A stretch of 64,000 nt of DNA from Blasia pusilla (lineage: Eukaryota). The stretch covers positions 29,264,001 to 29,328,000 of the forward strand of contig CM114271.1 of NCBI GenBank assembly GCA_050084515.1. Reading direction: 5' to 3'. A model generated the notes under the pieces. The model worked only from the letters and a program-made list of their open reading frames with translations, searched no databases and was not told the origin of the DNA. The first letter of the stretch is position 1. Each line of letters opens with the position of its first letter. Positions 1 through 64,000 of the stretch are shown one piece after another. The translations under genes and the position numbers were made by a program.

Positions 1-650
1 AAGACCTCGTTTTGTGTTGCTAAGACATGCTTTGGTTCAATCCTTGGAGAGGGCCCGAAGACTACGCCGTGAAAATGGAGGATCCGGCGAACTAAGTTTT
101 TGCCGTGTGGTGTCTCTCAAAAACATCCTTTTCATTTAGTAGATGGGCCCATGGCCTCTTTTGGGACGTATGCTCGGCCGAACCTTCGCCCCCCGTAGGG
201 TCGCGGCGTCTCCTATGGCGGAGTGGCTGATTATCCCTATTAATCGGGCCATTTCCCAGCGTCTTGGCTTGCTGGTGTTGTCCCCGGTTCATAGTTGCCA
301 ACCCAGGTACCTAATATGAGAGCAAGATGGTCCCTGCGACTAATGATCTTCTGCAAGTACATTCTAGTAAGGGCTCGTGATGCATGGCCCGACCCAAACC
401 AAATAACAATCTCGGATTGAACCGATATTCCCAACGCGTGTTTGCCGTTCCACCAAGCGAGTCTTGGCTTTTATTAGGAATAGATTGAAAATGCGGATTG
501 CGCTGCCCTTTTGCATTCCTCGGCCGTTGATGCATGGCATGGCTACACACGTGCTACAATGGCAATTACAATTGGAAGCAATCTTTGTTGGAGCGGAAAG
601 ATTGCCTAAGTTGGATTGTTCTCTGCAACTTCGAGAACATGAAGTTGGAA

Positions 651-684
<34 letters not shown>

Positions 685-698
685 AGTACTCGGGCTCT
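1..698 (+). pseudogene. rrn18: Degraded mitochondrial-type SSU rRNA fragment (NUMT)
   Basis: Conserved SSU rRNA blocks: CCTCGTTTTGTGTTGCTAAGACATGC (5-30), GGCTACACACGTGCTACAATGG (541-562), GGATTGTTCTCTGCAAC..GAGAACATGAAGTTGGAA and CTAGTAATCGCGGATCAGCATGCCGCGGTGAAT (about 613-683). The sequence between blocks is degenerate or rearranged. Confidence 0.7.
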
Positions 699-774
699 AA
701 CTGCTTCGACAAGAAACCACACTCCACCATCATGAAAAGGCTGACGGCCTTGATAAAATGTCAACGGACCCTAG

Positions 775-1085
775 AACTGGTTATGAAACATGAGGTGTTG
801 CGGAGGGCATATGCGAGAGTGGAGCGTCCCTCCAATTTGTTGGTGGATTCTATATTGGATCCGGGCCGTCGATCACAAGCAGTGAGGCTAGATGATCGAC
901 CGCCGTTGACTGTGGTCAACAGGATTGGCATGCCACGGGCAACCTTTCCCACATTGGTGAGTTTTCCCGCTTCCTATGCATTGAAGGAGGCCAGACCTAA
1001 CTTATGGTTTGGGATGACCAGTTACAGAGGTTGGTGGAGCCCAATGCCGATGAGGGAGAGCGAGCGATGGGATTCCCCACAAGAG
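775..1085 (+). pseudogene. C-terminal part of the retroelement C5 cytosine methyltransferase (copy A)
   Basis: Collinear with 20450-20755 of copy C, including the motif IX-like ERERAMGFP. Motif X is deleted in this copy. Confidence 0.8.
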
Positions 1086-1799
1086 TGACGACATCACAGC
1101 ACTTGCGTTGGTGATCCCCATGCCTACCGAGATAGTTGAGGCACTGGCTGGGGGCAAGATCCAAGGAGATCGACACAGCAAGGGTGATCAAGAGGTACAT
1201 CCTTGGACTTCTTTGGATGTTCTACAGGTATGCCAGGAGATGATAGCCACAACACTGAGCGTGGTTCTGAGTACTGCACATGGAGGTCCGATTTTGCAGT
1301 TGGCTGTAGGGGAGCACTTGAGTTTTGTTGTTAGAGATGGGGTTGCACCATACCACCAACACCCGCGTCGGAGAGTCCTACCGTAGTCATGATGGAGACT
1401 TGGGAGCCAAATATAGGCCCTAAGTTGATTGGAGGAGAGCGGCGCCGGATACACCAGTTCCTTACGAGTTATAGGAGGTATTTTGCATTTAGTATGGATG
1501 ATTTGGGTACGCTGAAGGGTCCAAGGATCCGCATTGAGTTGTCGAGTGACACGTCGATCTTCCGACAACCCTACAGGTACAGTGATATGGAGAGGATCTC
1601 GCCAAGAAGGATGTGCATGGCAACTGGATGTATAGGCGGATCTGTGGAGATTACCGACCTATCAATTGGCAGACAAAGTTCAATTGGTATGCCATACCCA
1701 CTCCTGAGGAGATCTTTGATGCGATTGGGCATGCAAAGGTCTTCAGTTCATTGGATTTGCAAGTCGGATACCATCAGCTGCCTATCAGATTGGGGAACA

Positions 1800-2897
1800 A
1801 GCAGACTCCACAGTTGCATCCACTTCCAATCATGGGTTTAGGTTATAGATGGAGTTTGGATTTTGCAGGACCTTTGCCTTTGACGTAGCGTCATAGTCGC
1901 TATGAGTTGGTGATGATCGAGCACTTTCTCAAAGTGGATAGAGTTGGTTGCATTGCTTGACAAGGCTAGTGAGGGAGTAGCGTATGCCTTCCTAGATCGG
2001 GTGCTGAGTCATTACGATGCACCAGCTGAGGTATTGACAGACCAGGGTATATAGTTCCGCGGGGAGTTTCAAGCCTTGTGTGATCAGGCACTGATTCCAC
2101 CGCACTACTTCGCGAGATCATCTTGAGGCGGATGGACTAGCGGAGCGGGTTGTGCAAACGGTGAAGAGAGGACTACGCAAGTATGGCTTGCAGAGAGGTC
2201 ACCTAGGAGATTGGGACCTCAAGTTGCCGTGGTTTGCAATGAGATACACATTCAACAGGCATGCATCCTTAGTGCATGTCTTTCTCATCATACTTGCTTT
2301 TGTATGGCCGAGAGCCAGATTACCTACGGCCATTTGTCGAGATGTTGGTGAGGTGTTGAACCTTGATGACCCTGATGTATGGATGCGAGCATGTTCTAAG
2401 AGGATTGAGTTATTTCGAAGAGTGATGCCCATGGCGTTTGAGAACTTGGCGATTACGCAATATCGGGATACATTGAGGTATGCGATTATTCGGGAGGTGG
2501 TTATCGACCTACTATCCGGAGTTTTCATAAGGGAGACTATGTCTACTTGCAACAGACGGCACCCACGACCTTGGATGTGACTGCATGGTGCACCATCTTG
2601 AGAGTGTGTGAGGTTTTGCCATCCACTATTCTCTTATTGGAGGGACGTGATGGTATGGTTTGGAAGGACCATCTGCGTAACTATGCGCCATATCATTTTC
2701 CAAACATTGACGGTACAATTGATCCAAGCTTAGCAGTAGTTCCTACACGCTTGAGATGTATGTTGTGTGGTTCCGCCCGTGGTGCAGCCACTATGCTAGT
2801 GTGTGATGGATGTTCGAAAGGATGGCATATGGCATGTCTGACGTTACCTCTCACTAGGGTTCCTGAGGTACAATGGATGTGTCCCAGATGTACATAG
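1800..2897 (+). pseudogene. Gypsy integrase with C-terminal PHD finger (PHD 2757-2891)
   Basis: DDE core (SLDFAG / TDQG / AERVV), a GDYVYL..RNYAPYH tail, then CMLC-x11-CDGC-x4-H-x2-C-x14-CPRC with PL..VP...W.C, a canonical C4HC3 PHD. Confidence 0.85.
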
Positions 2898-3077
2898 TGT
2901 AGCTAGTTCTACATTCCGACTTGTGTCTCTGACATGGATGACAAGAAGACGACTATTGATGGGGCCACATGAGCACTCGACCTTCTAGCTCTTAGCGTCT
3001 GAGAGATGTATGTCATGGTAGGTAGGGATAGATGGCTATCTAGAGTTAGAGGGACCTAACCACCAGGTAGGAGGGCG

Positions 3078-3497
3078 ATTGGAGATATTTTGGTACTTCT
3101 TGTCTCGTTGTTGGGATGTCATGAGTTTGCATGGGATCGTGCGTGTTTGTGTGTGTGTTCGGTGACAGCGTGTGTGTTGTGTAGCGATGTGTATGCGTAT
3201 GAGAGTTGTCACGTCTTTTAGGATAGATCGGTGAGATCTAGTAGCGCGCCTTCACAAGTAGTGGAGGACAGGCTCAAGAGGTTGAGAATGACCTGCAGAG
3301 GCCCCAAGAAATATGATAGATTAAGATAAAATTTTCATTAGGTCTCAAAATTCCAAAAAGGATTATCACATCCATGCGCATACACATCGCTATACAACAT
3401 ACATCGCTGTCACCGAACATACACACAAACACGCACGATCCCATGCTAACTCATGACATCCAAACAATGAGACAAGAAGTACCAAAATATTTCTAAT
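3078..3497. repeat. Inverted repeat, arms about 130 bp (about 3078-3205 and 3365-3497)
   Basis: 3365-3497 is the reverse complement, with scattered mismatches, of the 3' untranslated region of gypsy copy A. Confidence 0.85.
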
Positions 3498-6400
3498 TAA
3501 ATCAAGATCCAATGTCTCTCAACATCATAGCTTTCAAATGTGTGCACTCTCCTATTAATATAGGAGCGATTCCTCCATGGCCACGCCTCTCTTCGTGAAG
3601 CGTGTCAAATGTTTTAGTGCCCAAAACCATAAAAAAAGAAAAAAGAAAATTATGAGAGATAATTAAGTCAAGAGATGGGAGGTGAGAGGGGAGGGAGAAT
3701 TTTCTAGTTTTTAATTTGAAATCTTTTAGGAATAGAGATTAAATTTAGTTATGCTCTCACGTATTTTTTATAAGTAAGATATTCTCAAAAAAATGAAGGA
3801 GTGAAGTAATTCTTCTAAATTTTTATTTCCCTTAAAATATGAACATTTCTCCCGACAATAGATAGGGAAAATTTTTTCAACATAAAAATAACTAGATTCA
3901 AAAATATTATTCACTAAGTAGAAAAGATGCACAAAGTGATGTTTAGATAACTTATTCTGCATTCTTATCTTTTTTTAATCTCTTTTCATTTTTGAACCTT
4001 TTCGAGTTCTTAATTTTTTTTCAATTTTTTTATAAATTCTTAAAGTGCATTGTAAAGACATTTTTACTACTATGCATGTATGAATATAATTATATACATA
4101 CAACTCTTTCCATATTGGAAAAAAATTATATTTATATCTATATCACTATTGGCAACCCTATATGCACAATAAAAAAATAGTTTTAAGTAGATAATTATGT
4201 CTCTTCATATTAGATATTTTGGGAAAGAAAAATTTTCTTGAAAGAGGAAAATGGTGTTATTTGTTAATTTAACTAATCGTCTGGTTAGTGAATTGAAAGG
4301 ATAGGAAATAATATTTGTAAACTCTCAAGGGAAAATATAATTATTTAGGAGAATAGAGTATTATGTAAAAATTAATAGAGAAGCGGAATTATGGAGAAGA
4401 ACGATATGTTATTCCCGTTTAAAATTCAGGAAAGTGGAACTTTCATATCAAAAGATATCTACATTCTTAAAAAAATCATTTTAGTACGCAAGCATACTAA
4501 ATAGTCATGTATAATGGGGATAGGATAACGTTACATTGTGAAGCCACGCTCGATTATAACCTACTAGGTAAAGGGACTAACCATATTCATGTAAATTCAA
4601 GTGAATGGGGAATATGTTTTTTACACAAAAGGGCAGGTCCAATTTTGACCCCATAATTTTAAATCATAAACACACAGTTCTTTACAAATTAAGAAAACAC
4701 TCTTAAATGATAATATAAATTATTTCATGAAGAAAATTAATATATTTGAAAATAAATATATTAAATAAAATGTTTCTTCTAGTTTTTGTTATATCACTCA
4801 CCACCCCTTAAAAAACCTTGCAAGACACTCCGATGTAAGTGTAGTGAAGAATCCACATATTAGGAAATACGTGGAGTCAAGTGTTACCCGTTTTCCTATT
4901 CCGAAACTGGACTGGTATACGGCCCACTCTTTTCTCCCTCTCCATTCACTAACTACTTTCTCTTCCACCCCTCTCAGAGGATGGATACAAGATACGAAGA
5001 CTTCGCCGTAACAGACTCACGGTTCCCACGAGGCTGAGCAATTGCGACAAATTTCCGCGAGTTCACCATTCTAAGACTTCGACTCGAGCAACTTGAATTC
5101 TAGGGTATCTCGAGGATTTTGTAGGCAACCGTGCATTTCATGCTTGGTAGGGTACCTTCGCAGAGCATATCGCGACCAATTGTAGGTCATCTAATTGGAA
5201 TTTACGCTGTCCTTCGGCCCTGTCCCCGGAAATCCAAATGCCCGATCTGATCAGGACTCCACTAAACTCTGCTCAATCTAGATCTTGAGCAGAGTTTACC
5301 GAGCTTACAACCCTAAATGTTTCAGACCGACGGGATCCGGCGGCACACGAGATCGTGAGGAGTTAACTCGCTAACATCGATAGCAAACCTAGGGAACGCT
5401 GTCGGAATAAAACGTACAATCTCTTGGGAGTGCTGAAATTCGAGTCAGTCTATAGAAAGTCGAACGCGCTGAGCCTGGTCTAGAACCTATAATCGAAAGA
5501 CCCTGTCAGCTGACCATGTGTCGTGTTCACTCTAAGATTGCAAGTTCCTTTTGGATTAGTATCCTTTCGCAGTTTGACAAAAAATTGACTCAGATACTTC
5601 TCACCTTATCTAATGTTCTTTTCTTTTCGGGAACTCTCGACTCCGGACATGTTGATGCTGCCGACTCTTTCACAACGCGCACCATAAGAGCGCGCAACGG
5701 CTGAGCCGTCACCAAGTGAATCGAGATGCTTTCGCTTGCAGGGTGAAGTTTGTATTGTGCAACCTAGTGACCATCTACTATTTAAACTACATATACGCCG
5801 TAAGATTCACGGATTAAATCTCAAATTCTCAAATGCCATTGAAAATTAATTTGAAATGATATTTGACCGAAAATATGAAGTGAGGAGCGCACTGTCAATA
5901 TAATACATAGAGATAGATTACGTTTGCCCGTGACGCGATGTGGCACACACGAGCATGATTGCAAGCACCCCTGGTCAGCGCGGTGGTGCAACACGCTGGC
6001 GACACATGGATGTGCTCGGAGCATGCCGAAGCCACGCACGCTGGCAACGGGGCACACTTCGATGGGTCTGGAATAGCTTCCAACTGACTGACACAGAAGG
6101 GGCTGGTCCAGTTTTGACCCGAGATCTCGGAAGTTTGATGGGTACTCGTGATTAGCTAATGAACAGCTTGACGAATTCACCGTTGTACATGTGGCGCGTT
6201 CTTACAATGTAAGCCCCTCGCTTCTCACGAAGCCATGGCCAATTCTAATGCAACAATCGAATAGCTAATGCAAGAAGCAAAACCTAGCTTAGAGCTACTG
6301 TTACCAGATCTCAACGTCCAACCGTTTCTAGTGCGCTGTTAATTAATTAAACACCGAGCCCGATATGAATGGCCGTACTTATCGTACTTTTATATTACAT

Positions 6401-9574: not shown

Positions 9575-12500
9575 GATGGACCTGCCCGAGCATCCGCTCC
9601 AAGGGCAGGTCCATCACCTCCTCTACAATCACCTCTGCACGTGATGCAGGAACTCCGACTCCGGGCTCACATAGTGAAGCGGCCAGCCGAAAAGCCTCGG
9701 CGGGCGTACCCCCCAGCGTCATAACATCGGAAGCAGAAAATAAAGGAGCGCGGTACACAATGGTGGCCGCCCCCAAAATGTGTTTGACACATGCCCCTCG
9801 TGAGCATCAGCAATAGGAGTCGTCGCACTCGCTTCTCCCATCGCCCTCCGTGCCTACACACCAAACTCTCCAGGAACTCTGATCAGGATCCATTGATGGG
9901 GTCCTCATCGCCTCGGACAACATGAAAGACTGAGGAAGCCTAGTCTGTTTCTTGGCTTCCCCTCAATGTGGATCCAACTCTGCGGTTGCTCCACGCGTCA
10001 CAACTGCGGCTACCTCCATCTGGGCAACCTTGCACTTCCAACCAGGATCCTCCATATCTCTGGCTGCTCCATATGATGTCGATGCCACAGATTTGGCATC
10101 GGGTAATCTCAATGCCATAGTGGCAATCTGCTCTTGTAGCTGATGTATCTGAGCAGCCATCCTAGCCTCACGCCCGTCATCTCCCTCGACGCGTCTAGGT
10201 GGTAGGACTCTATCTTCTCCACGGGCAACTCCATCACCGTGTCGGGAAACTCCAGCTCCTTGTCCCCCAACGGGACCACCTGGTGCAGGATCTCTAGGCC
10301 CACCCAGACCGGCTATTCGCTCTGGTGCCCTCTCTGGCCCTCGGTCCGAACGTAACTCACAATATAAACTGAAACACCTAGCGCGTGTATGACCATACCT
10401 CTGACAATAGTCACACTAATAACCTCCTAGTGCACCATCTCCTCCTCTATGTTGAGGCACACGTCCATGACCCTGACGAGTGCAGTCGCGCTGATGATGG
10501 GCTCCACCACATGACCAACAAGTGATAGTAGGCGGCTGCTGTTGAGCCGCATATGAAGGCGTAGGTCTTGTGGCATGGCCTCCCAGTATCCTCCCTAAGC
10601 TCGTGGAGCCACAGTCGATCTATCTCTCATCACCTTCTATTCCGCATCTTGAGTCTTTCGTGTCACTCTTGAGTGTATGGCTTTGGGATTGCTTGCTCTT
10701 CCAATGATAGTGGATCACCCCTCTTGGGAGAGTAACTTGACCATGGTCTATTCTTCGAGAGGTTTCTAGAGTGTGGTGTGTGTGTGGAGATAAGAGGTCA
10801 CCTTAGAGGAGTTTAGTCATACTAAAATAATGAATATTTTATATTTTGTATGTCCTTATAGGGATTGTACTTTGTATGTCCTTATATAGCAATCCATGGA
10901 CGTCAATAGGCCTGCTCAAGTAGGGTTTAACACTAGTTGTGCTATCTTCCTTGTATACAAGCGTAAAGTAGTTTATAGGGATTTTATAGCTATGAATTTT
11001 GGGGTCTGATATTACGAAGAAGTGATCGCCTCGGCACTTCTATTTGTGAGACCTATCGTGAGAGAATGGAGAGTATACATGATAATCTTGTATTGAAAAA
11101 GGAGAACTTCTTAGAGATTTCACCTTGCATCGACCACGTCTGCCGCAGCTAGAAGGTCTGCCCTTACTCAAAGAAAGGCTCTCGAAACGACAACGTTGCT
11201 GCACACGAGGGGCAGACAATCGCGACTGCTCTTGCCAGAACCCATGGTGGCTACGCTCTCCTCCGCCATGTTGCCCTCAATGTTCTTGGCGGTCCTAAAA
11301 AAAACTCTCAACGTAGGGGAGGTGTTCATAAGAAGCACCCCGACCCGCACCCGTGTCTGTAGGGTCCGGTCAAGCATCCTAAACCGTGACTAGATAGCCT
11401 GAGCCTCCGTCACCCCCTGAGTCACATTGATCAACTGGCGCAAGCGAGTGTAAGCCTCACGCAAACTCTCACATGGGCGCCTCTGGAAGTCGTGGATGCT
11501 CCGCAACTTCTCCGTCCGTACCCCCTGGTAGCTTGCCCTCAACTCAGCAAAGAACTCAACCACAGGGTTGAACTTGAGACGAACCCAACTAGATGGTGCA
11601 ATTGCTCCCGTGTGAGTAATCCCTCCTAAAACGTCACTAGTGGAAGAGGAAGTAGCCTCTCTTGACTCCTCCTCCTCATTTGGGAATGGCTCCATCCATG
11701 ACATATAATGTGGGTCATAGTAGAGCCTCCATGCCTTGATCTCATGTGCATATCTCTGAGAGAACTCATGGTAATCGTCCATGGGCGTCCCCTCTAAATG
11801 CTGAAACATACCGTTCCATGCTGTAAACGGGTTGAACTCTCTAGAGTTCCTGGCCCGCTGGGAGTGGCGCCAACTCCTAAACTCTACTATGAAATCGTGC
11901 AACTCAATTGTGCCTACTACACTTGAAAACCTACGCGGTCCTCTACCTTGGTCGTCCATCAAATGCCCAACTGGTAGGACCACTCACAATGTGTGGCGAT
12001 GTGCTCACAAACTCCTCTACACCCTCCCCCTTGTCTGACGATGACACAGAAGGAGGTTGAGGTGGTCCCTCACGTGGAGACCCTCAGAACCTCGCGCCAC
12101 TCCGCGTATATCCTCTAGAGCTACTCTCAAGTTCATCACCTCGCCTCTTTAAGTCTCGAACTGACTCCGTGATGACCCTCATGCCCCTCTCACTCGATCA
12201 CTCTCAAACTTGCAAGTAATCCCTCTATCACCCATCCCAAACATGTGGCACTCAATCTACACTCTCCCTCCCCGAGATGTATAACGTGTGGCAACAAGCG
12301 GCGTGGTGCGGCAAATCGACTAGGCTATCATCTCATCGACAACCTACCCTCAACTCCGGACACTCCACACAGATCTATGTCCCCTAAACCACATACATAA
12401 ATGATGCTCTCAACATCCACACACCCAATATCCCCTAATAAACTACCCAGATCCTAGAATCCCTCACGCGTGCAGGGTACAGGACCAGAATGGGTAACGT

Positions 12501-14302
12501 GAACACATGTCGATTTCTCTCCTCAGCAATTGCAAATCTCGACCCAAACTCAGTCGTGAAGACAAATCCTCCAATCAAGAAGTCATACTCCTCCCATACT
12601 GACGCTGCTCACAACTCTTCGATAGACAATGCGGTTCCAGTAGAATGGTGCGGCGTTGTAGGCGGCACGGAACGGCTACAAACAACATGACCCTCGATGG
12701 TGGGATGCGGCACTTGACGGCATACCCTCCTCAATCAACAATAAACCCACACTCTGCTCCACAATAACGGAGCGGCTCCGTGATCGAGATGGTGCGTTGC
12801 GGCCACGAGCAGCACGGCGCGGCAATCGGCGGCACGTTGCGGCTATGGGCGTCACAACACGGTACTTGATCGTCGTCAAGCGATTACCAATCACAACATA
12901 ACAGCATGAAATCAAAACTCAAACACCATAACCGGAGGTCATTTGCCATCACTAGTTGATGACAAAACTGCGATGACAGTGGCGGCCAAAACAAAGTACG
13001 TGGTGGCAACGCAAGTCAGAGAATCTACAAACGTTGTGGAAGACCCTCCACTCCGTAACGGGCGGCAATGGCAACCAAAGGTGGACAACGGATGGTGGAC
13101 CGTTGACGGTGACGGTTGACGGCTGATGGTGACGGCTGACCAGTGACGATGATGGTTGATCGTTGATGATCACGGTTGACCTTCGACGGCGGACTGTTGA
13201 CGGTGACTATGACGGTGACAGCCGCCGCTGGCGTGGCGGCTGGTTTAGGGATTGAACAATTTAACCCTAAAAATTGCCTAGCAATGGTAGTTTTGCAAGA
13301 TTGACCATAACCTCTTACTTGCAACTCCAAATTGTGTATTGTTTGTTGCACAACGTGCACAGCTTCACAATCTACAACAGCGTCAAAAAATTTGGAATTG
13401 GAGATTGCAGTAAAAACTGACGGGGACTGTCGTAACGTGCAATGTCTCTTTCTCCTACACAAAATTTGGCAGCGCTTCTACACTAATTTCTCCCAACCAA
13501 AATGTAAGACCTATAAAAATACAAATCATCAAGGTACATGGTGCTCCCAAGAGCACCTGCATGGGAAAACTTGCCCCCATACTCAATCCCTATAAAAAAT
13601 TGGGCAGTGCTTCCGCGCACCACTCTTCCACACAAAAAATTGGCAAATGCAAAGAACAATCATTGCAGTGCTTGCTCCGGTGAGCACTCCCATCAGCCGC
13701 GGAACAGGGAACACGGTCCCCAATCTGCAAAAACAGCGAATGACCAGCGAGCTCTCCCATGAAGTTCTCTCTTTCTCTCATTCTCTCTTTGTAAAGTAAG
13801 ATCCAATCTCTCTCTACACCATCTCACACCATAGCTCTCAAAGGTGTACACTCTCTCTCATGTCAAACAAAACCCACTCTCCTAATGAGAGGCTTGGGTT
13901 ACACTCACAAGGCAAGGGACTCACTCCGCCGCCTCATGCCAAGAGGTTCAACAAAGAGAGAATAAGCTCTCAAGCTCTCTCTCCTTGAGGTATACCCCTC
14001 CCCTCTCCCAAGCTCTCTCCATTGTAACCTATTCTCCCAAGTCACCTCCTTGGCTCTTGACCTGATATAGGAGGTCAAAGGTCACTTACCAAAAATATAA
14101 AGTCGATCATATATTCAAAATGGTACTTACCTAAAATAGTAAGTTTCTCAATATGGCTCCAAATGAGCCGAAACGAAGGGGAAACCTACTCTGTCAGGTT
14201 TTCCGGGCCTCAGAAGGTCATGCTCAACCTACAGAGCTTGTCCTACACTACTCGTGTAAACGCTCTGCTAGATCCCACTGATCTATCCTAACAATTGTGA
14301 CA
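9575..14302 (-). mobile_element. Ty3/gypsy copy B of the same family: 5' LTR, leader, gag; truncated before the protease
   Basis: Gag ORF 11390-11983 (GPRRFSSVVGTIELHDFIVEFRSW..ESLREAYTRLRQLI), CCHC knuckle near 10375-10415, and 9575-10430 collinear with 22180-23040. Carries an AT-rich insertion of about 500 bp at about 10620-11125. Confidence 0.85.
12508..14302 (-). repeat. 5' LTR of gypsy copy B (about 1.8 kb; inner boundary inferred)
   Basis: Starts TGTCAC at 14302 (minus). Its first about 100 nt match the 3' LTR start of copy A (3207-3310). TATA-like CTATAT lies about 235 nt in. Putative end ..ATCGACA at 12508, where similarity to the leaders of copies C and D begins. Confidence 0.6.
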
Positions 14303-16114: not shown

Positions 16115-18668
16115 CTATCTAACTGTTAACTGCGGGTTTTCCTTACTGCATCCACTTTTGTTGTGAATTTTTAGCTCCGTCACTTACGAAAAACTCAGAG
16201 CTGACCCATTGCTACATAACTAAAATGAGTACCTTGTAAGACTCCTGTTGGGTGGCCCCAGCCTTAATGCTTCACACATATTTTTTGTGCAGAGTTTTGT
16301 TTAGCGACCTCTGACAAAGAACTTTTCATACCTTCAAACCCAGAGCCATGTATGTTGTTGCATTTCTAGGGTTGGTAAACTCACGCAATTAGGGACTTAC
16401 ATCATAAGTTACTAGGTTTCCTCACTTTTTTGTGTTGTGTTCATCTCAAAAAATTAGCGTATATTCTTCACTGAAACAGAACAGGGTGATCAGATATCGG
16501 ACTCTACGCAACAACACGTAGTCTTTCGATTAGGTGACCTCGCAAGCAGTACATAGCACAGAACGTATACTTACCTCAAGTTCATTTGTATTTCATATTT
16601 CATGTGTAGGCACTACTCACTTGGAAACTTACCCTTAGGACATATCTATTATTTTCAAGTTGAATGCTAAGCACCACTCAGAATTCTTAGGTTTCTATGG
16701 AACTACACACACTATTAGTACCTATACTTATAAGTAGTTTCAGTGTCTTAAATGCTTCACACAAACATTATGAGGATCAATGATGACACGCTTTTCTGCA
16801 ACGGACCCATGTGTAGTATTAGCTAACCTCCATTGACAGTAGGCAAGGATACTTCGTAACGTTATGCTCCACATATTCCACTCTTCTAGTTGTACTCAAC
16901 TGATCATCTACTTAACTGTAGATTCCAGGGAGCGCATAGTTCAGTGAATGAATTTCAGGGTGCACGTAGTTCAGTGAATCAAGCTTATTTTTGTCTCCAC
17001 GTCTGTCTGTTCAGATAAACATTTATCAATTGACGTCGTTAAGCTGTGCCAGACAAGATTGAGGTATGGCGCGGCCTAGGGTATCAAATAGACCTAGATC
17101 CAAGTTATTGTTCAAGAAGCTTAGGATAGCACGGTGTAGGCGCCATGCAAAAGCCACGGTTGTTGAGTCTCATAGACTACTCAGGTAGCCGGTGTGTGTT
17201 GCTTGGCCAGAGATTGCAATGTAACTTACTAGTTGGGAATCATAGTGCAACTCATTTATTAAACATATGAGGTGTTGCGGCTATTATGGTAGTGTATCCT
17301 ATAGCACATGTCACTTAAAAATGACAATTAAGACAACAGAAACATATCTACCTTATGCATTATGTAACGGGTACATGACACAATATGTCATTCCGTCGCC
17401 TTGTAATTTTTTTGTCTACCCACAACATGTAGGAGAAGATCGGTACACCGCCCATAATGTCTATATGACACCAGCCTATATTCGGGACATATTGAATGTA
17501 AACCCACTTTACCTGGAGTTCCTATCGTTAGTCAACTCAAGGCTAGGTATTGAGACCAAATACAACGGCTTTCATGATGGGTTCTTCCAAGTCAATAGCC
17601 TCCTAGACTGCCCTGTTTGTCGCATGGGGACTTGATGATCAGACTTCCATTAACTCTGATTTCTTGTACAAAAAAGTGCGCAAAGCGTTCTCCTAGTCAA
17701 CTTGAGGATTAATGAATTGTATTCACAATATATCCCGTTATTTGAACAACCTAATCCAATACGTGGTCTTGTAGTTTTTCCTTCTTCATCAGTTGAGCCA
17801 ATACTGAGAGCTTCACAGGAAAAGGGAAAAATAACCCATAGCATGACAGTTGATCCATACAGTTCAGAGTTAAACATGCTACAGGATGTGGAGTATTCAT
17901 GACCTATAAAAAGGCGCGCTTCCTATGATATACTCCAGAATGGGAGTGTTATATTCAAGGAACAAGCTCACATTAGATAGCAGTTCCTTAGTGATAGGAA
18001 TGGTATATCTGCAAATGCTAAGGTCACTATTGAGACAGGAATCTTCCCATTCCTATTCCCGTATGTTAGAGACTATTTTGACGGACAATGTTCCTTTGTA
18101 GACTACCTGCGCAATTGCGTGAAGAAACTTCTCAGTGTATTTACACTATATAAACCATACCTACTAATAATGCATCAACTTTGGCAGTCTATTGCATTTG
18201 CCTCTCGCGCACGTTCTTGATCTTGAATAGGGAGCTTGCTCAACTAAAACAAAAATACCCTAAAATGAGCGAACAGGAACTTTATTCATACCTTTCAAGG
18301 TACACTATTAGTGCACAGATACCAGGAAGCCCAAGTTGGCATCACCGCCATCTTAGGCACCTAATGGGGAATGTTGGATTTTTTCTTGACTCTCACTTCT
18401 GATGAGGTGTTTGAAACAAGGTGGGTTGAGGTTGAAGATGTTGAGAATATGGTAAAGAGAATTAACCCGCTCTTCATGTGGCGCGATGCACCGGTTGAGT
18501 GCGTAGTTCTATTCCATACTAGGTTGAAGGCATTTCTCCAAAGTTATATTTTGGGTGGTCCCCGCTAACTTAGAAGAACCCACAATTATCTGATTAGATA
18601 TGAACTACAGGGTTGAGATAGCTTGCACTCATATATTATCTTGTGGATTGAAAAGGAAGATATTGATC
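16115..18668 (+). pseudogene. Helitron 5' half (leader and Rep N-terminal region), inverted relative to the helicase half
   Basis: FPFLFP (about 18045-18062), IPGSPSWH, FFLTLT (Rep motif 1), DAPVECVVLFHTR, and RYELQG*DSLHSYIILW (HUH motif 2, about 18595-18647), which ends at the gypsy C junction. Confidence 0.75.
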
Positions 18669-18669
18669 C

Positions 18670-19080
18670 GGCCCACCTCGTAAGCTTCCCTATAAGCTTA
18701 TCGGACTCTATCAACCACTTAAGTGGCAAATGATCGGTAATGATGGGAAAGGGGTTGCGGAATAAATAACACCTAAAATGTGCAACAGCCCACACCACGA
18801 GCAAGCACTCACCCTCATATGAGCTATACTTTGCCTGTGCAACGTTGTTCAAGCCACTAGCAAAAGCCACCACGAACTCTCTACCATCATTGTCATGCTG
18901 GGTAAGCAGGGATCTAAGCCCCAACATGCTCCAATTGGTATGCAATTGGAAAGGACGCCCCCTAATCAGTCTCCTCAATATAGGCGCGCACGTGAATCTG
19001 TCCTTGAGCAGTTGAAATGCTCTCTCCTGCTCATCCCCCTAGTGCCACTTCCGATCCACCTTGGTCAACAAGGTTAGCGG
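18670..19080 (-). pseudogene. Gypsy RNase H
   Basis: RPFQLHTNWS..REFVVAFAS..AKYSSYEGECLLVVWAVAHFRCYL..FPIITDHLPLKWL..KLTRWA. Confidence 0.9.
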
Positions 19081-19990
19081 CTTCGCAATCAAACTGAAAC
19101 CTTGATGTACTGTTGATAGAAGTTTTCCAATCCCATGAATGCACAAACTTGACTCATATTTGTAGGGCGTGGAATGCATGAAATAGCCTCTACCTTCGTG
19201 CTGCACACCAAGGCCTCATGGGTATATCGTTTGACCCAAGTTCTCTGGTCATAGAAAAACTTGCACTTGCCTAGATGTAGCTTCAGCGCATATAACTGCA
19301 ATCATTGAAAGACCTCCTCTAGATGTCGCTCATGCTCCTCAACAACCATGGCTCTAAAGACTACGATGTCATCAATATAACACCTAGCAAAATCCAGACC
19401 TGCCAAGATCCTATCCATGACCCTCTGAAACTCAGCTGAGGCGTTCTTTAATCCAAATGGTAAGAACCGCCACTGGTACAAAGAATCCTACCCGTGAGAA
19501 TGGAAGCCCCAAAATACCCTCTTCTGCCTATCCTACAATCTGATAGGCTGCTGATGGTACTGGACCGCAAATCCAATGAACTGAAGACCTTTGCATGCCC
19601 AATTGCATCAAAGATCTCCTCAGGGGTGGGCATGGCATACCTATCGGACTTCATCTGCCGATTGATAGGTCGGTAATCTCCAGACATCCGCCTATCCATC
19701 TAGTTGCCATGCACATCCTTCTTGGCGGACATGAGAGTGGCAGATGCATATTCTTCATGCAACATCTCCACTAACCCTACTCCAACCAAGTTGTGGCTCC
19801 TACTTTGAATCTGAGCTCTCTCCATGTCACTGTACCTATAGGGTTGTCAAAAGATTGGCGTGTCACTCGACAACCAAATGCGGATCCCTGGATCCTTTAG
19901 CGTATCCAAATCCTGCATGCTAAATGCAAAACAACTCCTAGAACTCCTCAGGAACTGATGTATCCGTCGCCGCTCTCCTCTTATCAACTT
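19081..19990 (-). pseudogene. Gypsy reverse transcriptase
   Basis: DYRPIN..DRYAMPTPEEIFD..FSSLDL, PFGLKNASAEFQRVMD, CYIDDIVVF (about 19357-19383), LGKCKF; frameshifted. Confidence 0.9.
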
Positions 19991-20359
19991 AGGGCCCATG
20001 TCTGGCTCTCAAGTCTCCATCGTGACTACGGTAGGACTCTCTGGCGCGGGTGTAGGTGGTTGCTATGGTGCAACCCCATCTCGAACAACAGAACAACTGC
20101 TCTCTTATGGCCAATTGCAAAATCTGATCTCCATGTGTAGTACCCGGAACCACGCTCAATGTTGTGGCTACCATCTCTTGGTGTACTTGCAAAACATCCC
20201 AAGAAGTCCAAGGGTGTCTCTCCCGATTACCCTTGGTGTGTTGATCTCCTTGGGTCTCACCCCCACCTACTGCCTCAACCGTCTCGGTAGGCATGGGGCT
20301 CACCAACGCAATAGTTGTGATCTGTTGCATCCTCAAACGACGCTGCTCAGCTACTCCTA

Positions 20360-21308
20360 ACCTGAAAATCCATGTCAAGCAGTTCAAGTCCATCGCTTGA
20401 CCCAAGACATGATGTCCTGATGCCTCTGATAGTGACAGTATTGTCGTCACTCGTGTGGGGAATCCCATCACTCGTTCTCGCTCATCGATGTTGGGCTCCA
20501 CCAACCTCTGTACCTGGTCATCCCAAACCAAGCCACGTCCGGCCTCATTGAATGCATACGAAGCGGGAAAACTCACAATTGTGGGAAAGGCTACCCGTGG
20601 CATGCCAATCTTGTTGACCATAGTCAATGGTGGTCCATCATCATGCTTCACTGCTTATGATTGATGACTTGGATCCATAATAGAATCCACCAACAAATTG
20701 GAGGGGCGCTACACTCTAGCGTACGCTCTCCGTAAAACCTCATATAGGACCGAGTTGGTCCACCAAAGATGCGGGCGGTGTATTCTAGAACCTACACTTG
20801 CCGCATCCAAAAACACTGCCGAGCCAATCCATGCGCGCACGTGATGTGCACTCGTCACCACGCGGGATCTTGAATCGCCCAAAATCGGCACATTCTCTAG
20901 AATGAATGTTGGAGAATGAGACTGATGCTCTTGCAAGTGTCGCAAAATCCGCATCATCTCCCAAAACAACCTGGACCGAGTGTGAGCCAACCCACTACCT
21001 CGTCCAACACTCGAGTGGCCCTGACATGGCCAACCAACAATGACCAACTCTATGGCCCCAACCCGCTCCGAGTCCTGCGCCCCCAAAAATGAAATATCCC
21101 TTGGTAGGGAACTCTGGTATCCCTAGACAGCGGACGTAGACAACAAGTCGGGAAAACGAAGGCGTAATTGTGCCACATGGTGAAGTGAAGCGCGCCTCGC
21201 AACATCATCAATCTCCACATACAAGTACTCTTGTATGCGTACTCCTACCTGCAAAACAACAACTAACCCAATGCTAATCCCTCCAAAGAGATCCAACACC
21301 CGAATACC
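20360..21308 (-). pseudogene. DNMT3-like C5 cytosine DNA methyltransferase domain embedded in pol
   Basis: All in one frame: motif I VLDLFGGIS (21273-21299), motif II YVEID, motif IV GWPCQ (21021-21035), LFWE, motif VI FILENV (ENV 20889-20897), motif VIII DAASVGSRIHRPHLWWTN (to 20754), motif IX ERERVMGFP (about 20458-20483), motif X VLGQAMD (about 20389-20409). Only point-stop codons interrupt it. Confidence 0.92.
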
Positions 21309-21734
21309 CTCCTATGCGATGCGCCACACAATAGGTGTGATATCCAAGGGTGTCATCATAGCACTTTCGACTACCTCGGGTTCCTCTAACCCGTCACGCT
21401 CTGGTGCAAATGTCTCGCTTCACGCGGTCTTCACAGGCTCAGTGACTAAGCATCGAAGCTCCTCAATTGAGCCCCAAAGAAATACCTCTCCTCCATGGAC
21501 TGATGCGGCGACCATGGCACTCCTATCGGTAGAAATTTCAAGAACAAGAGTATCCTCTACATGGACATATCCCTCAATCAAATCACTAGGCCAAATGATA
21601 GCGTTGCTAAATGCTGCTAAGGTCGCCATCTCTCATGGCCGGCGCTCGATCACTGCACTTGTGAATCAAACGGGTAATGAGCTAAGGCGCCCATCACCTG
21701 ATTGCCATCCTGGTCTGTAGGACTCTGACTCCTC

Positions 21735-22045
21735 CTAGTAATCCAGGGAAAACCCCATCGGGTACAATACTGCTCCACCAACCAAGATGTCGCAAGACTC
21801 ACCATCAGTCACTATTGCCTTAGCTCGCACCATGGACTCATCTGTAGGATGTCTCGGGCGAATCCTTACCATGACCTCCTATTGGATGATATACTGTGTG
21901 GTACTCACTCCACCCAAGGATGAATATATCCGGAATGGACAATGCTCCACATTTGCCCTTGTCAACCCAAACCTCTAAATGCCGCTTTCCCCAACATCAA
22001 GGGTTGCGCTCCTGAATCCAACATGACGCGTTGCGGACCAAACGC
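21735..22045 (-). pseudogene. Retropepsin aspartic protease
   Basis: RVMLDSGAQPLMLG (DSG at 22010-22018) and C-terminal DILVGGAVLYPMGFSLDY (about 21740-21791). Confidence 0.8.
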
Positions 22046-22949
22046 TCTACCTCCTGGACTCACCAACTAAAAGACCTCTCCCCGATTATCAAAAAACAAC
22101 ACCAGGAGAAGCCATGGCATGCTCTATCGTGGGTCTAGTGGGCATCTCTGCCATCCTAGCAGCCGCAGCCTACCATGAATCTGACATGGACGGCCCAAGC
22201 ATCAGCTCCAAGGGAAGCTCCATCACCTCCTCTCCAATCACCTCTGAACTTGATGCAAAAACTCCAACTCCACGCTCATATAGCCTCGGCAGACAAACCT
22301 CCCAACGTTGTAACATCGGAAGCAGAAAACAACGGAGCACAGTACATCATCGTGGCTGCTCCCAACATTATACTCGACACATGCTGCCCGTGAACATCAG
22401 CAATAGGAGTCGTCTCACTCGCTTCTCCCATCATCCTTCGTGCCTACACACCAACAACATCACCAACTCTCTAGGAACTCTGATGAGGACCCATCAATGG
22501 GGTCCTCATCGCCTTAGACATCGTGAAAGACTAAGGAAGTCTGGTCTGTTTCTTGGCTTACCCCGATGTGGATCCAACTCTGCTACTACTCCACGCGTAA
22601 CAACTATGGCGGCCTCCATTTGGGCAATCCCGCACATCCAACCAAGATCCTCCATATCTTTGGCGGCTCCATAAGACGTTGATGCCACGGATCCGGCATC
22701 GGATAACCTCAATGCCATAGTGGCAGTCTATTGCAGTAGCTGCTGTATCTGAGTAGCCATCCCAGCCTCACGCCCAACATCTCCCTCAACGCGTCTAGCT
22801 GGGGGAACTCTACCTCCTCCATGGACAACTCCACCACCCCCTCGGGCGAATCCGACTCCTCGTCCCCCAACGGGACCACCTAGTGTACGACCTCTAGGCC
22901 CACCCGGACGGGCAACTCCCTCTTGTGCCCTCTCTAGCCCTCGGTCCGA

Positions 22950-23990
22950 AGGTAACTAAAGGTGCAAGCTGAAACACCTGGAGCGTGTGTGACCGTACCT
23001 CTGACAATAGTCACACTGATAACCTCCCGGTGTAGCCCAATCTCCTCTTCCTTGAGCTTGTGGTGCCACAGACCTATCTCGGAATCCTTGTTGCTACACA
23101 GATGGTGCAGGCAATCGTGACTGCTCTCGCCTAGAACCCATGGTGGCTACGGTCTTCTCCGCCATGTTACATTCGATTTCTCGACGGTCCTAAAAACATC
23201 TCTCAATACAAGGGAGGTGTTCATAAGAAGCACCCCTCCCACAAACGTATCCGCAGGGTCCGGTCCAACATTACGTACCATGACTGGATAGCCTGAGCTT
23301 CTGTCACCCTTTGAGTGACGTTAATCAACTGACACAAGCACGTGTAGGCCTCACGAAAACTCTCACCCGGGCGCCTTTGGATGTCGTTGATGCTCCGCAA
23401 CTTCTCCGTTCATACCCCCTAGTAGCTCGCCCTCAACTCAACGAAGAACTCAACCAGCGGATTGACTGGACGATGCAACAGCTCTAGTGCGAGTCACCCC
23501 TCCTACAACATCACTCGTGGAGAAACCCTCTCTTGACTCCTCCTCCTCATCTGGTAACAGCTCAGTCCATGATACTTAGTGTGGGTCTTATTAGAGTCTC
23601 CACTCCTCAATCTCATGGGCATATCTCTGCGAGAACTCATAGTAATCGTCCATGGGTGCCTCCTCTAAATGTTGGAACATTCCATTCCATGCTGTAAACG
23701 GGTTGAACTCTTTGGAGTTCCTAACCCGCTATGAGTCACACCAACTCCTAAACTCCACAATGAAGTCGTGTAGCTCTATAGTGCCTATAGCACCCAAAAA
23801 CCTACGGGGTCCTCTACCCCGGTCATCCATCTCGTACGCCCAACTGGTAGGACCACTCAATGTGTGTGGTGGATCACTAGCACACTCCTCTATACTCTCT
23901 CCCTCGTCTAAATACAACACAAAAGGTAATCAAGGTGGTCTCTCACGTGGAGACTCTCGAAATCTCGCACCACTCCGAGTAAACCCTCTA
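22950..23990 (-). pseudogene. Gag with CCHC zinc knuckle
   Basis: CDYCQRYGHTRSRC (about 22975-23016); GPRRFLGAIGTIELHDFIVEFRSW homologous to copies B and D. Confidence 0.8.
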
Positions 23991-24015
23991 CAGCTACTCT
24001 CAGGTCCACCACCTC

Positions 24016-61843: not shown

Positions 61844-64000
61844 TGTCACATCTGAGTAGCCGATACGCCGAGATCTATCATGGATAGGGCGTAGGAGAAA
61901 GCGGACTATCTTGAGGGTAACTTTGTGCCACGGTTTCGGATGAGGTTGAGGATAGGTCCATTGTGTCAGGAACGTCGTTTCTGACAACTTTCATGTTGAG
62001 GTCTTTCACACCCAAGTGACTTGTTGACCAGGTCACCCGCCCCTGGTAACCTATGCACGCAGGTTACCAAGGGAAGGGCTATTTTTAGGAGAAGAGCCTT
62101 TTGGCTCTTCCCAACCCTATATAAGAGAGGAAGATGGCTTTCCTAAGCCATCTTTCTCGTGTTGGGCCGTTGGAGCACCTTTCTTGTATATGTGTGAGAT
62201 AGGACTAGGGTGCTAGCGTCCAGATTCCTTGATAGCACAGGGTGGACGAGGCTTGATATGTCGATGTAGATTGAGGAGTGGAGTTTTAGGCCGGGTATGC
62301 CGTTTTTACTACTCTTTATTTTTACATGAGAAAGATGTCAGGGGGCTGGTGGGAATTCGTTGTTTGCAGGTAGGCAAGCGAGTTGCCTTGGTCGGGAGCC
62401 CGTGGAGACGTTGGCTAGCATTGTATTTGTCATTTTTCTGTTTGGAAGGCCTTGGGCGGAAGCGCTGTCCGTATTTCTCAGATTTTGCTGGTGCGGATTG
62501 ATTGGGGACAACAACAGGGTATAGTGCAGGTTGTGACGGCAAGTATAGCGTCGTCTAATAGCGGGAATGTCGAGATTTAGCAAGAAGGAGAGTTAGGGCA
62601 TGCAGCCGCCGGGGGGTTGTCAAGTAAAGGGCGGTTAGGTCACGAAGGCTAGGGTTAGGGTGACGTGCGGCGACGGCACCCCCCCCCCAAAAGTTGGGGA
62701 GGCCCATAGGGGTGCGGGCCAAGCCCCCCCTCCTTCCCCCCCGCATTTAGGGCCAGATTTTCCCCCCTCCAACGTGGTAGGACCGGATGTGGTGGAGTTG
62801 TAGGGGCTGAAGGTGGTAGCGCAATCCGACACGGTACCATAGTTGGCGGGAGTGATGTGGTAAAGTCGGATGTAGTCCGAAGGGAAGACATGGTTGGGAG
62901 CCAACCAGGGTGAGTCAGGTTACATGCACGGAGAGGTTTGCACGACATGATGTTTTTGGGGCGCGACAGGGCGTTGCGAGAGTTGACGATGGAGGGGCAG
63001 TGCACATGATGCCGATAGGTTGTCCGCATCTGTTGACGGAAGGATCGACGTGTTGGTCGAGGAGAATTTTGTGTTGCGGAGGTTGTCATATCACGTGGAG
63101 GAGTACATGTTGACGGTGCAACAGGTTGGAGGCCGTGATCAAGTTACCCATTCGAGTCCCTTTTTCCGCACTTATCGTGTGTGATTGAGAGTGTTGGGTA
63201 TCGGGTAGTAGCTGGTGCTAGGTGGTTGTAGTGATGGTGAGGAGTGTAGATTCTGTTCATATGTAGCATGTGGGTGGATTTACGGCGGTTGCCGAGTAGG
63301 GGTTGCGTGTATGACCCGAGAGAGTGTCACTAGGTTAGGTGAGTCAGTTGGGAGGCTTATGGTGAGCCCAAGTGTTGAGTGTGCGTGAGGCCGGGTATGT
63401 CATCACGGGATTGATGTTAGCATAGGTGAGCTAGTGAGGAGTGTGGGAGACTCTCGGTGAGTCTGAGTGCTTGAGCGGGTGAGACAGGGTTTGTCATCAC
63501 CGCGTTCTTCCAGGGTTCAGAAGAACAGGGTAATGGGAGCAGTAGTAGTGGTGTGACACGGAGTGGAGTGAGATACCGAGGGGTTACCAGTGAGGAGCTA
63601 CCTCAACATCCATCCGTGGCTGGATCGTCATCACTAGACATTGGGTCTGGTGACGAGATCATAGACAGAGACAGTAGTACTTGGCAGGAGATGGACGACA
63701 TGGGCCATCGGGGCATGCGTCGTTTCTCGGGTGCAGTGGGCACCAATGACTTAGATGATTTTATCCAGGAGTTTGACATTTGTGGTGCGACTTCCAAGAG
63801 ATACGGACCCCGACACGGTTCAACCCTTTCATGGCCTGGAAGGGGTTGTTCCAACACTTGGAGGGTCCTCCAATGGATGACTACATGGAGTTTCGATCAC
63901 TATATTCAGTAGAGATCGATGCCTGGAGGATGTATTGGGCTCCAGGGTATGTGTCCACTAGTGGTTGCGTGGCACATGATGGGATTGTGAGAGGAGAGAG
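61844..64000 (+). mobile_element. Ty3/gypsy copy D (more divergent): 5' LTR, leader, start of gag; runs off the window
   Basis: TGTCAC start, TATA (CTATATAA about 62116), shared leader motif AAGTTACCCATTC (about 63141), and gag TRSG..GHRGMRRFSGAVGTNDLDDFIQEFD..HLEGPPMDDY homologous to copies B and C. Confidence 0.8.

Follow-up and report, generated by a model that had tools for sequence, protein, structure and literature searches.

Retrotransposons that carry a cytosine methyltransferase of their own have previously been reported from one charophyte alga and from dinoflagellates. In KnitGypsy-Dnmt3 of Klebsormidium nitens, a DNMT3 domain lies inside the pol gene of a Gypsy element, and the paper frames this acquisition as specific to the K. 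nitens lineage and describes a DIRS-like repeat arrangement (de Mendoza 2018, PMC5890265). EpiLTRs, which are long terminal repeat (LTR) elements of Cymbomonas and Euglena, carry an adenine methyltransferase together with a DNMT4-related DNMT and a chromodomain, and the preprint on them names the streptophyte Gypsy-DNMT3 as a separate, earlier case (10.64898/2026.05.21.726589). Targeting of integration by chromodomains has been described as well (Gao 2008, cited via PMC6673714). PHD fingers in transposons are already known. REM1, a green-lineage Gypsy element that Perez-Alegre is said to have described in 2005, reportedly encodes a PHD finger in pol. For Gypsy-7a_cRei of Chlamydomonas reinhardtii, a figure legend lists a PHD between RNase H (RH) and integrase (IN), and no DNMT (PMC9940879). 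Here we analysed a stretch of 64,000 nucleotides of the Blasia pusilla genome (assembly GCA_050084515.1, contig CM114271.1, positions 29,264,001 to 29,328,000; hereafter the window), in which the open reading frame (ORF) at 2442-2897 on the forward strand is the 3' terminus of pol in a dead, internally deleted Ty3/gypsy copy (copy A) and joins an integrase C-terminal barrel to a terminal PHD finger.

The ORF is uninterrupted and encodes 151 amino acids (aa), of which residues 106-150 (nucleotides 2757-2891) match the Pfam PHD family PF00628 over profile positions 1-47 of 47 (E 5.5e-11; 42.7 bits, with a family cut-off of 24 bits). An earlier note on this DNA, made from the letters alone, had described a canonical C4HC3 PHD finger that ends pol after the integrase tail and had suggested a scan with this profile; the scan recovered the finger in full, in frame and in terminal position. 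All eight ligands of the pattern C-x2-C-x11-C-x2-C-x4-H-x2-C-x14-C-x2-C are present, and the last cysteine is separated from the TAG stop by one codon. When a strict C4HC3 expression was run over the six frames of the window, a single locus matched, namely this one. In an alignment with relatives (alignment A1), C121, C124, C147 and C150 were invariant, while C106, C109, H129 and C132 were at least 90% conserved. An AlphaFold2 (AF2) run on a 33-sequence alignment gave predicted local distance difference test (pLDDT) values of 91-94 across residues 101-150, and the modelled finger could be laid on the PHDs of DPF3b, BAZ2A and ATXR5 with a root-mean-square deviation (rmsd) of 0.6-1.2 Å over 47-49 columns (Foldseek). 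These results confirm that the terminal C4HC3 PHD is real and far beyond chance.

Directly before the finger, ORF residues 18-105 form the integrase C-terminal tail, with 57-69% identity to polyproteins of the order reverse transcriptase (RT)-RH-IN-PHD. In tblastn the tail was 70% identical to residues 593-725 of the relative P0191, and the AF2 model placed strands at E33-39, E46-59, E63-67 and E73-77. The start of the feature at 2547 in the earlier note lies inside this tail and had to be moved outwards: homology to the tail begins at about 2493, and the ORF itself at 2442. With the whole model as query, Foldseek returned three proteins of Tudor-PHD composition, PHF1, MTF2 and UHRF1, with a high rmsd of 10-19 Å; as modelled, the ORF has only the two-domain composition in common with these proteins, and the geometry differs. 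Between barrel and PHD, relatives keep a Cys-x2-Cys-His motif, the second Cys of which is conserved to at least 90% in alignment A1; the motif could belong to an extra zinc site. A chromodomain of the chromovirus type was absent from this C-terminus, since Pfam gave no Chromo match in ORF 2442-2897 at E<=0.1. The wording that the PHD stands there "instead of a chromodomain" is only partly right; it can be kept as a positional analogy only, because P0269, a protein of a sister clade introduced below, has IN, PHD and Chromo in tandem (the only Chromo found).

How widespread this fusion is was addressed with an exhaustive search of the 151-aa ORF against 1.84 billion representative proteins. It returned 3999 representatives at E<=1e-3 and 655 at E<=1e-10, and most of the 150 matches listed spanned query residues ~16-150, integrase tail and PHD together. 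Among 321 collected proteins, 269 matched the tail and 238 covered both tail and PHD, with strict C4HC3 kept in 214 of the latter. Ten of the 24 failures were inspected: four had His for the last Cys, four a single ligand substitution, and two were truncated or read through. A C4HC2H finger, with the last ligand changed from Cys to His, was seen in a sub-lineage with the DNMT before RT (P0227, P0233, P0229 and P0239). Sphagnum, Marchantia and Calypogeia were among the best tail matches (62-69% identity). A second copy in the window (copy C) has an ORF at 19992-20654 with the DNMT C-terminus and linker, the named matches of which all came from Sphagnum jensenii, S. fallax, Marchantia polymorpha and Calypogeia fissa. 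In the protein atlas the top cluster was Streptophyta, followed by Chlorophyta, and no K. nitens-named protein was present in the lists of relatives from the DNMT-linker and tail searches. Judged from these sequence matches, a large clade of elements of the green lineage has kept the IN tail-PHD fusion, and the family probably lies on a bryophyte branch of the streptophyte Gypsy-DNMT3 lineage.

The earlier note had also combined the pieces of the window into an element with the order gag-protease (PR)-DNMT-RT-RH-IN-PHD. Within the window this architecture is a composite of two dead fragments, copies A and C; the part of the proposal that stood is the order itself, because in intact relatives a single ORF comprises CCHC-gag, PR, a DNMT3-like methyltransferase domain, RT, RH, IN and PHD. 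P0227 (2518 aa) has CCHC-PR-DNMT-RT-RH-IN-PHD in a single ORF, and parts of the order are found in P0217 (2358 aa) and P0226 (1783 aa), both PR-DNMT-RT-RH-IN-PHD, and in the 5'-truncated P0209 (1516 aa; DNMT-RT-RH-IN-PHD), which ends three residues past the PHD. The co-occurrence of DNMT and PHD in one ORF, for which full-length copies were to be recovered, was thus seen in these four relatives. The Marchantia protein P0186 (1190 aa; DNMT-RT-RH) is a truncated gene model. To call the element a "self-contained epigenetic module", as was done earlier, would be a deduction from domain content.

Domains were assigned in 121 RT-RH..IN..PHD proteins by phmmer with collected sequences as queries. The DNMT was located before RT in 11 of these and between RNase H and IN in 61, and the PHD stayed fused to the integrase tail in either arrangement. 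Another 48 had no DNMT match and were uninformative, because in each fewer than 400 aa precede RT; the remaining protein, P0273, lacks a DNMT match, with 735 aa preceding RT. The DNMTs of the two positions are homologous, since those of P0209 and P0024 are 29% identical over 339 residues (E 9e-31); the RT-RH and IN-PHD parts of the same two proteins are 40-42% identical. In a search of solved chains (no tree), the best PDB matches of the P0209 DNMT were DNMT3B, 3C and 3A, the top 29 all being DNMT3A/B/C (E 1e-6 to 1.2e-5), with HaeIII and plant DRM ranking below them. Because DNMT3A/B/C match this domain best, we provisionally assign the lineage to streptophyte Gypsy-DNMT3.

Trees were built with FastTree from 134 rows (RT-RH, IN core and IN tail columns, with the PHD columns left out) and with a quick LG+G4 run of IQ-TREE on 58 hand-chosen representatives of these rows; both are rather susceptible to long-branch artefacts, and in the window rows only 13-19% of the columns are occupied. 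FastTree recovered a 113-row IN-PHD clade with support 100, within which a clade of 52 rows (support 99) contained 51 rows of the order RT-RH-DNMT-IN-PHD, one of them with Chromo, and one row without a DNMT match (P0286). The named proteins of chlorophytes (Scenedesmus, Pleodorina, Tetrabaena, Chlamydomonas eustigma, Pseudoscourfieldia) fall in this sister clade, and the other rows of the 113 have the DNMT before RT or are N-truncated, nearly all with a terminal PHD. The LG+G4 tree agreed, with 100 in the Shimodaira-Hasegawa-like approximate likelihood-ratio test (SH-aLRT) both for the IN-PHD clade and for a 19-row RT-RH-DNMT-IN-PHD clade. One 7-row clade (SH-like 96 in FastTree, SH-aLRT 93 with LG+G4) united the RNase H ORF of copy C and the integrase tail of copy A with Marchantia P0186/P0291, P0191, P0188 and P0193; it is nested in larger sets, of 9 and 14 rows, to which P0209 belongs. 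Copies A and C belong to one family, because they are 84-88% identical in nucleotides over 790-1805; a split of the two between different clades, which the earlier note had named as a counter-case, was not seen in these trees. Three outgroup Gypsy polyproteins, P0298, P0301 and P0306, fell outside the IN-PHD clade in both trees. These have a PHD between RNase H and integrase, and P0298 and P0301 carry a precomputed assignment to the Dam adenine-methylase family PF05869, by which they resemble the DAM-LTRs of 10.64898/2026.05.21.726589 and the REM1/Gypsy-7a_cRei order.

Copy A is a pseudogene because of its internal deletion, frameshifts and in-frame stops (coordinates in the table). At the deletion junction, RT residue ~608 is fused to integrase residue ~1148 (P0209 numbering), so that ~540 residues are deleted, namely the remaining RT, RNase H and the HHCC zinc domain of the integrase. 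The HHCC is accordingly missing: homology begins at P0191 residue 361, past the HHCC at 303-358, which relatives retain. The integrase core aligns at 61-83% identity with P0191 residues 361-592 (tblastn), the frame changing from 2 to 3 to 1 along the way, with three frameshifts and stops, and the frame is intact from 2493 on through tail and PHD. By tblastn to P0191 a Ty3/gypsy DDE core followed by the C-terminal barrel can still be recognised; Pfam rve was undetected in the fragment ORFs of the window and was detected in the relatives P0002, P0191 and P0209. The same copy also carries the C-terminal half of the methyltransferase, just as had been noted earlier, and this half is 85% identical in nucleotides to copy C 20743-20442. 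In three RNA runs under the same species label, of each of which 6-12% was read, depth was 4-14 at 2092-2265 in the integrase segment (95-99% identity). These reads derive from related copies, because they extend into unlike sequence (loose ends at 2097 and 2214). Transcription of other family members is thereby suggested, but the reads give nothing firm on expression. No RNA sequencing run was listed as containing 700-3300.

Table. Features of the Gypsy family in the 64,000-nucleotide window, in window coordinates.
Feature	Positions	Strand	Basis
Copy A, C-terminal half of DNMT3-like cytosine methyltransferase (N-terminal half absent)	780..1105	+	tblastn of P0186, P0170, P0209
Copy A, DNMT-RT linker with N-terminal portion of RT	1392..1786	+	tblastn of P0186 residues 696-830, P0209 residues 443-608
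Copy A, internal deletion junction	1796..1805	+	copy C similarity stops at 1805; integrase homology begins at 1796
Copy A, integrase catalytic core and following region, three frames, in-frame stops	1796..2493	+	tblastn, three-frame translation
Copy A, integrase C-terminal beta-barrel (SH3/Tudor-like) tail, same frame as PHD	2493..2756	+	tblastn, alignment A1, AF2, Foldseek
Copy A, PHD finger (C4HC3), last pol domain	2757..2891	+	Pfam PF00628, solved-chain match, AF2, superposition
Copy A, TAG stop closing pol	2895..2897	+	sequence and ORF list
Copy B, gag-region fragment, same family	9576..12510	-	window self-blastn (77-80% nucleotide identity to copy C), tblastn of P0170
Copy C, gag, presumed PR, DNMT, RT, RNase H	18589..24015	-	Pfam, ORF map, tblastn
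Copy C, gag	~23815-22557	-	
Copy C, DNMT	21311-20358	-	
Copy C, RT	20008-19101	-	
Copy C, RNase H	19071-18589	-	
Copy D, gag start of related copy, runs off window end	63691..63995	+	tblastn of Marchantia P0170 residues 1-104, 64-68% identity

We next consider what a PHD finger of this type may read. By sequence, the closest solved chain is Lid PHD1 (E 1.2e-11), followed by KDM5B PHD1, CHD4, KDM5A PHD1, KMT2D, DPF3, PHF12, KAT6A, PHF21A, ATXR5, BAZ2B, UHRF1 and AIRE. Structural matches confined to the PHD included BAZ2A with a peptide of unmodified H3K4, ATXR5 and UHRF1 with H3 (unmodified in the UHRF1 entry), DPF3b, MOZ and KDM5B PHD1. These nearest neighbours, in part according to their entry titles, are readers of the unmodified N-terminus of histone H3. 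In PHDs that read H3K4me3, a Trp two residues before the ligand His forms part of an aromatic cage. The window PHD has Gly at this position, and a Trp directly before the His, where KDM5 and CHD4 have Tyr/Phe. With KDM5 PHD1, BAZ2A/B, ATXR5, UHRF1, DPF3 and CHD4 it has the pattern ...C-D-x-C-x3-(aromatic)-H-x2-C-L-x-P-P-L-x2-(I/V)-P-x-G-x-W-x-C-P-x-C in common (33-44% identity over 47-50 columns), although these are host chromatin proteins and not integrase fusions. Altogether, the Gly at the cage position and the neighbours favour a reader of the H3K4me0/R2 type without establishing it.

On this basis we regard it as probable that ORF 2442-2897 is the dead pol end of a bryophyte-branch Gypsy-DNMT3 element and that, in active relatives, the integrase-fused PHD tethers the intasome to the H3 tail. 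In such relatives the PHD would stay attached to integrase after protease processing and would hold the intasome on nucleosomes via the N-terminal tail of H3, the likeliest target being the unmodified K4/R2 state. Insertions would then be steered away from promoters marked by H3K4me3 and toward H3K4-unmethylated chromatin, functionally like a chromovirus chromodomain would do, and the DNMT3-like domain would work separately, on cDNA or on the new copy, as proposed in de Mendoza 2018 (PMC5890265). Copy A itself is incapable of any such role, being a pseudogene. Several points weigh against this interpretation. The function proposed for the PHD derives from its domain position and its nearest solved neighbours, and the link to KnitGypsy-Dnmt3 would run via shared architecture, DNMT3 likeness and a streptophyte host, and not via a joint tree. 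Acidic residues contact H3K4me0 in AIRE and BHC80, and the corresponding K4-contacting residues are not obviously conserved before the first Cys of the window PHD. Copy A has Tyr at both Cys of the upstream Cys-x2-Cys-His motif (2682-2696, residues 81-85), and in the three RNA runs depth was 0-0.46 over 2527-2961. Finally, no LTRs that would define the ends of the element were found around copy A by self-blastn of the window or by sensitive blastn of 2898-3700 against the 5' regions of copies B and C.

The main alternative, a role of the PHD in the service of the methyltransferase, seems unlikely to us. The PHD would then act as an ADD-like domain that steers or licenses the DNMT3-like domain on H3K4-unmethylated nucleosomes, either in the unprocessed polyprotein or in trans. 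That DNMT and PHD occur together in 72 of 73 informative proteins fits such a role, as do the nearest solved PHDs, which read unmodified H3 like the ADD domain of DNMT3; and since in the sister clade the DNMT is immediately N-terminal to IN-PHD, a DNMT-IN-PHD product is conceivable. In the window-type order, however, RT and RNase H separate the DNMT from IN-PHD and place it more than 1100 residues upstream, the DNMT shifts its position in pol whereas the PHD never leaves the integrase tail, and P0273 seemingly has a PHD without a DNMT.

Somewhat less likely again is that the PHD reads another mark (H3K4me3, for instance) or has a partner other than a histone, be it a factor of the host, a nuclear import factor or DNA, in which case insertions would be aimed at active chromatin or the finger would have no targeting role. 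PHD fingers are versatile, their specificity is not confidently readable from sequence, and alignment A1 contains conserved residues that are specific to the family, all of which would leave room for a different target. Against reading of H3K4me3 speak the Gly at the position of the cage Trp and the 60 best solved sequence matches, none of which is known as a classical H3K4me3 reader (such as BPTF, ING or TAF3). That the finger is foreign to the element, being a chance motif or a captured host exon peculiar to copy A, is hardly credible, even though a PHD is present in only one copy of the window: it is in frame with the integrase tail, occupies the same place in 238 of 321 proteins and is part of 655 representative matches at E<=1e-10, proteins from Marchantia, Sphagnum and Calypogeia are included, and the other window copies are truncated before the integrase. 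This explanation was rejected in view of an in-frame IN tail-PHD unit that is conserved across relatives.

A wider version of the tethering interpretation is possible but should be taken as tentative. Ty3/gypsy elements with a DNMT3-like writer and an integrase-fused H3-tail reader might form a Viridiplantae-wide clade that dates from before the split of chlorophytes and streptophytes, with the DNMT relocated within pol (before RT in the bryophyte type, after RNase H in the chlorophyte type), and the PHD might read H3K4me0 and couple the choice of integration site to self-methylation. In the chlorophyte-type branch, pol may in addition continue past the PHD with a chromo-like barrel and then with a second methyltransferase-like domain, of class I. 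If true, transposons would have a version of the DNMT3-ADD logic of their own, and Marchantia, a genetic model, would be among their hosts.

Of note, in the sister clade with RT-RH-DNMT-IN-PHD, pol runs 316-402 aa beyond the PHD (L008:10557-11753; also L002, L003, L004, L005, L010 and L014). This extension consists of a small strand-rich module followed by a ~180-aa region that was modelled at low confidence (mean pLDDT 54.7). All 50 structural rows listed for the ~180-aa region are class I S-adenosylmethionine (SAM)-dependent methyltransferases of the FtsJ/METTL16/KsgA type, with a best Z of 8.9, a value that can also reflect a common Rossmann arrangement; this region may represent another, second domain of methyltransferase type. 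In none of four extension sequences did Pfam give a family at E<=1, phmmer against the PDB gave no match at E<=10, and a profile search of the PDB returned one match that is not meaningful (E 1.9).

With respect to the other copies, copy C encodes a C5-cytosine methyltransferase domain within a Gypsy pol, and RVT_1 and RT_RNaseH lie downstream of it (Pfam: DNA_methylase PF00145 E 7.1e-12, RVT_1 E 2.9e-11, RT_RNaseH E 1.2e-25). Its PR was placed by position only, Pfam having no match at that place. The copy is degraded by stops and frameshifts, and it ends after RNase H, before the integrase. With regard to DIRS-like or terminal repeats, the 3' flank of copy A had no repeat in common with the 5' regions of copies B and C; the only structure found was a local palindrome at 3078-3497, directly 3' of pol, with arms 3078-3201 and 3373-3497 that are 92% complementary (72% over the whole stretch). 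Within it, segment 3207-3323 resembles 14187-14302 on the opposite strand. Directly upstream of copy A, 488-685 (+) resembles small-subunit (SSU) rRNA (Rfam RF01959, model positions 883-1325; E 1.2e-06), its 33.9 bits being under the gathering score of 50.

The rest of the window contains further mobile-element sequences and one probable host gene. Two long ORFs at 27454-29577 (+), of which the first has RVT_1 (E 4.5e-16) as its sole domain, resemble a non-LTR retrotransposon. An ORF at 45196-46149 (-) with zf-C17orf113 and the transposase-related DUF4371, and a PIF1-like helicase fragment ORF at 14388-15059 (-), are mobile-element debris. The intact 515-aa multicopper oxidase ORF at 52896-54443 (+; Cu-oxidase_2 E 5.4e-13, Cu-oxidase_3 E 4.3e-06) is probably a host gene that is intronless in this stretch.

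The locus itself is a decayed fragment that serves as a marker of its family and is not an active module. Elements of the same kind in bryophyte genomes would put reader-plus-writer retrotransposons in land plants, and their relatives are widespread in green algae. Marchantia is a tractable model with chromatin maps and genetics, in which steering by the PHD and a cooperation between PHD and DNMT3-like domain become testable, and interest in the family would rise if the PHD steers integration or if the pairing of writer and reader is ancestral to the green lineage. The term PHD does not occur in the main text and legends of PMC5890265, nor in the papers on classification of plant LTR elements PMC3350952 and PMC6317226 (Chlamyvir and Tcn1 clades), and in the available text of 10.64898/2026.05.21.726589 it occurs once, as a fellowship, with no mention of a PHD finger. 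No LTR element with both a DNMT and a PHD was found in the literature searched, which is not proof of there being none. The searchable text on the Gypsy-DNMT3 family thus contains no description of an integrase-fused PHD, whereas a DNMT3 domain in a Gypsy pol was already known (PMC5890265).

Compared with the described systems, the family of the window resembles KnitGypsy-Dnmt3, both having a DNMT3-like domain in the pol ORF of a Gypsy element in a streptophyte host. The hosts differ, being a charophyte alga for KnitGypsy-Dnmt3, while the window family is bryophyte-like with relatives in bryophytes and chlorophytes. Like REM1 and Gypsy-7a_cRei, it consists of green-lineage Gypsy LTR elements with a PHD encoded in pol, but the legend for Gypsy-7a_cRei places the PHD before the integrase and lists no DNMT, whereas in the window family the PHD follows the integrase. 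With chromoviruses it shares a small chromatin-reader domain directly after the integrase C-terminal barrel; this is a chromodomain in chromoviruses, a PHD in the window element and both in the sister-clade protein P0269. EpiLTRs, finally, are likewise LTR elements that pair a DNA methyltransferase with a chromatin reader, their combination being DAM, DNMT and chromodomain and that of the window family a DNMT3-like domain and a PHD.

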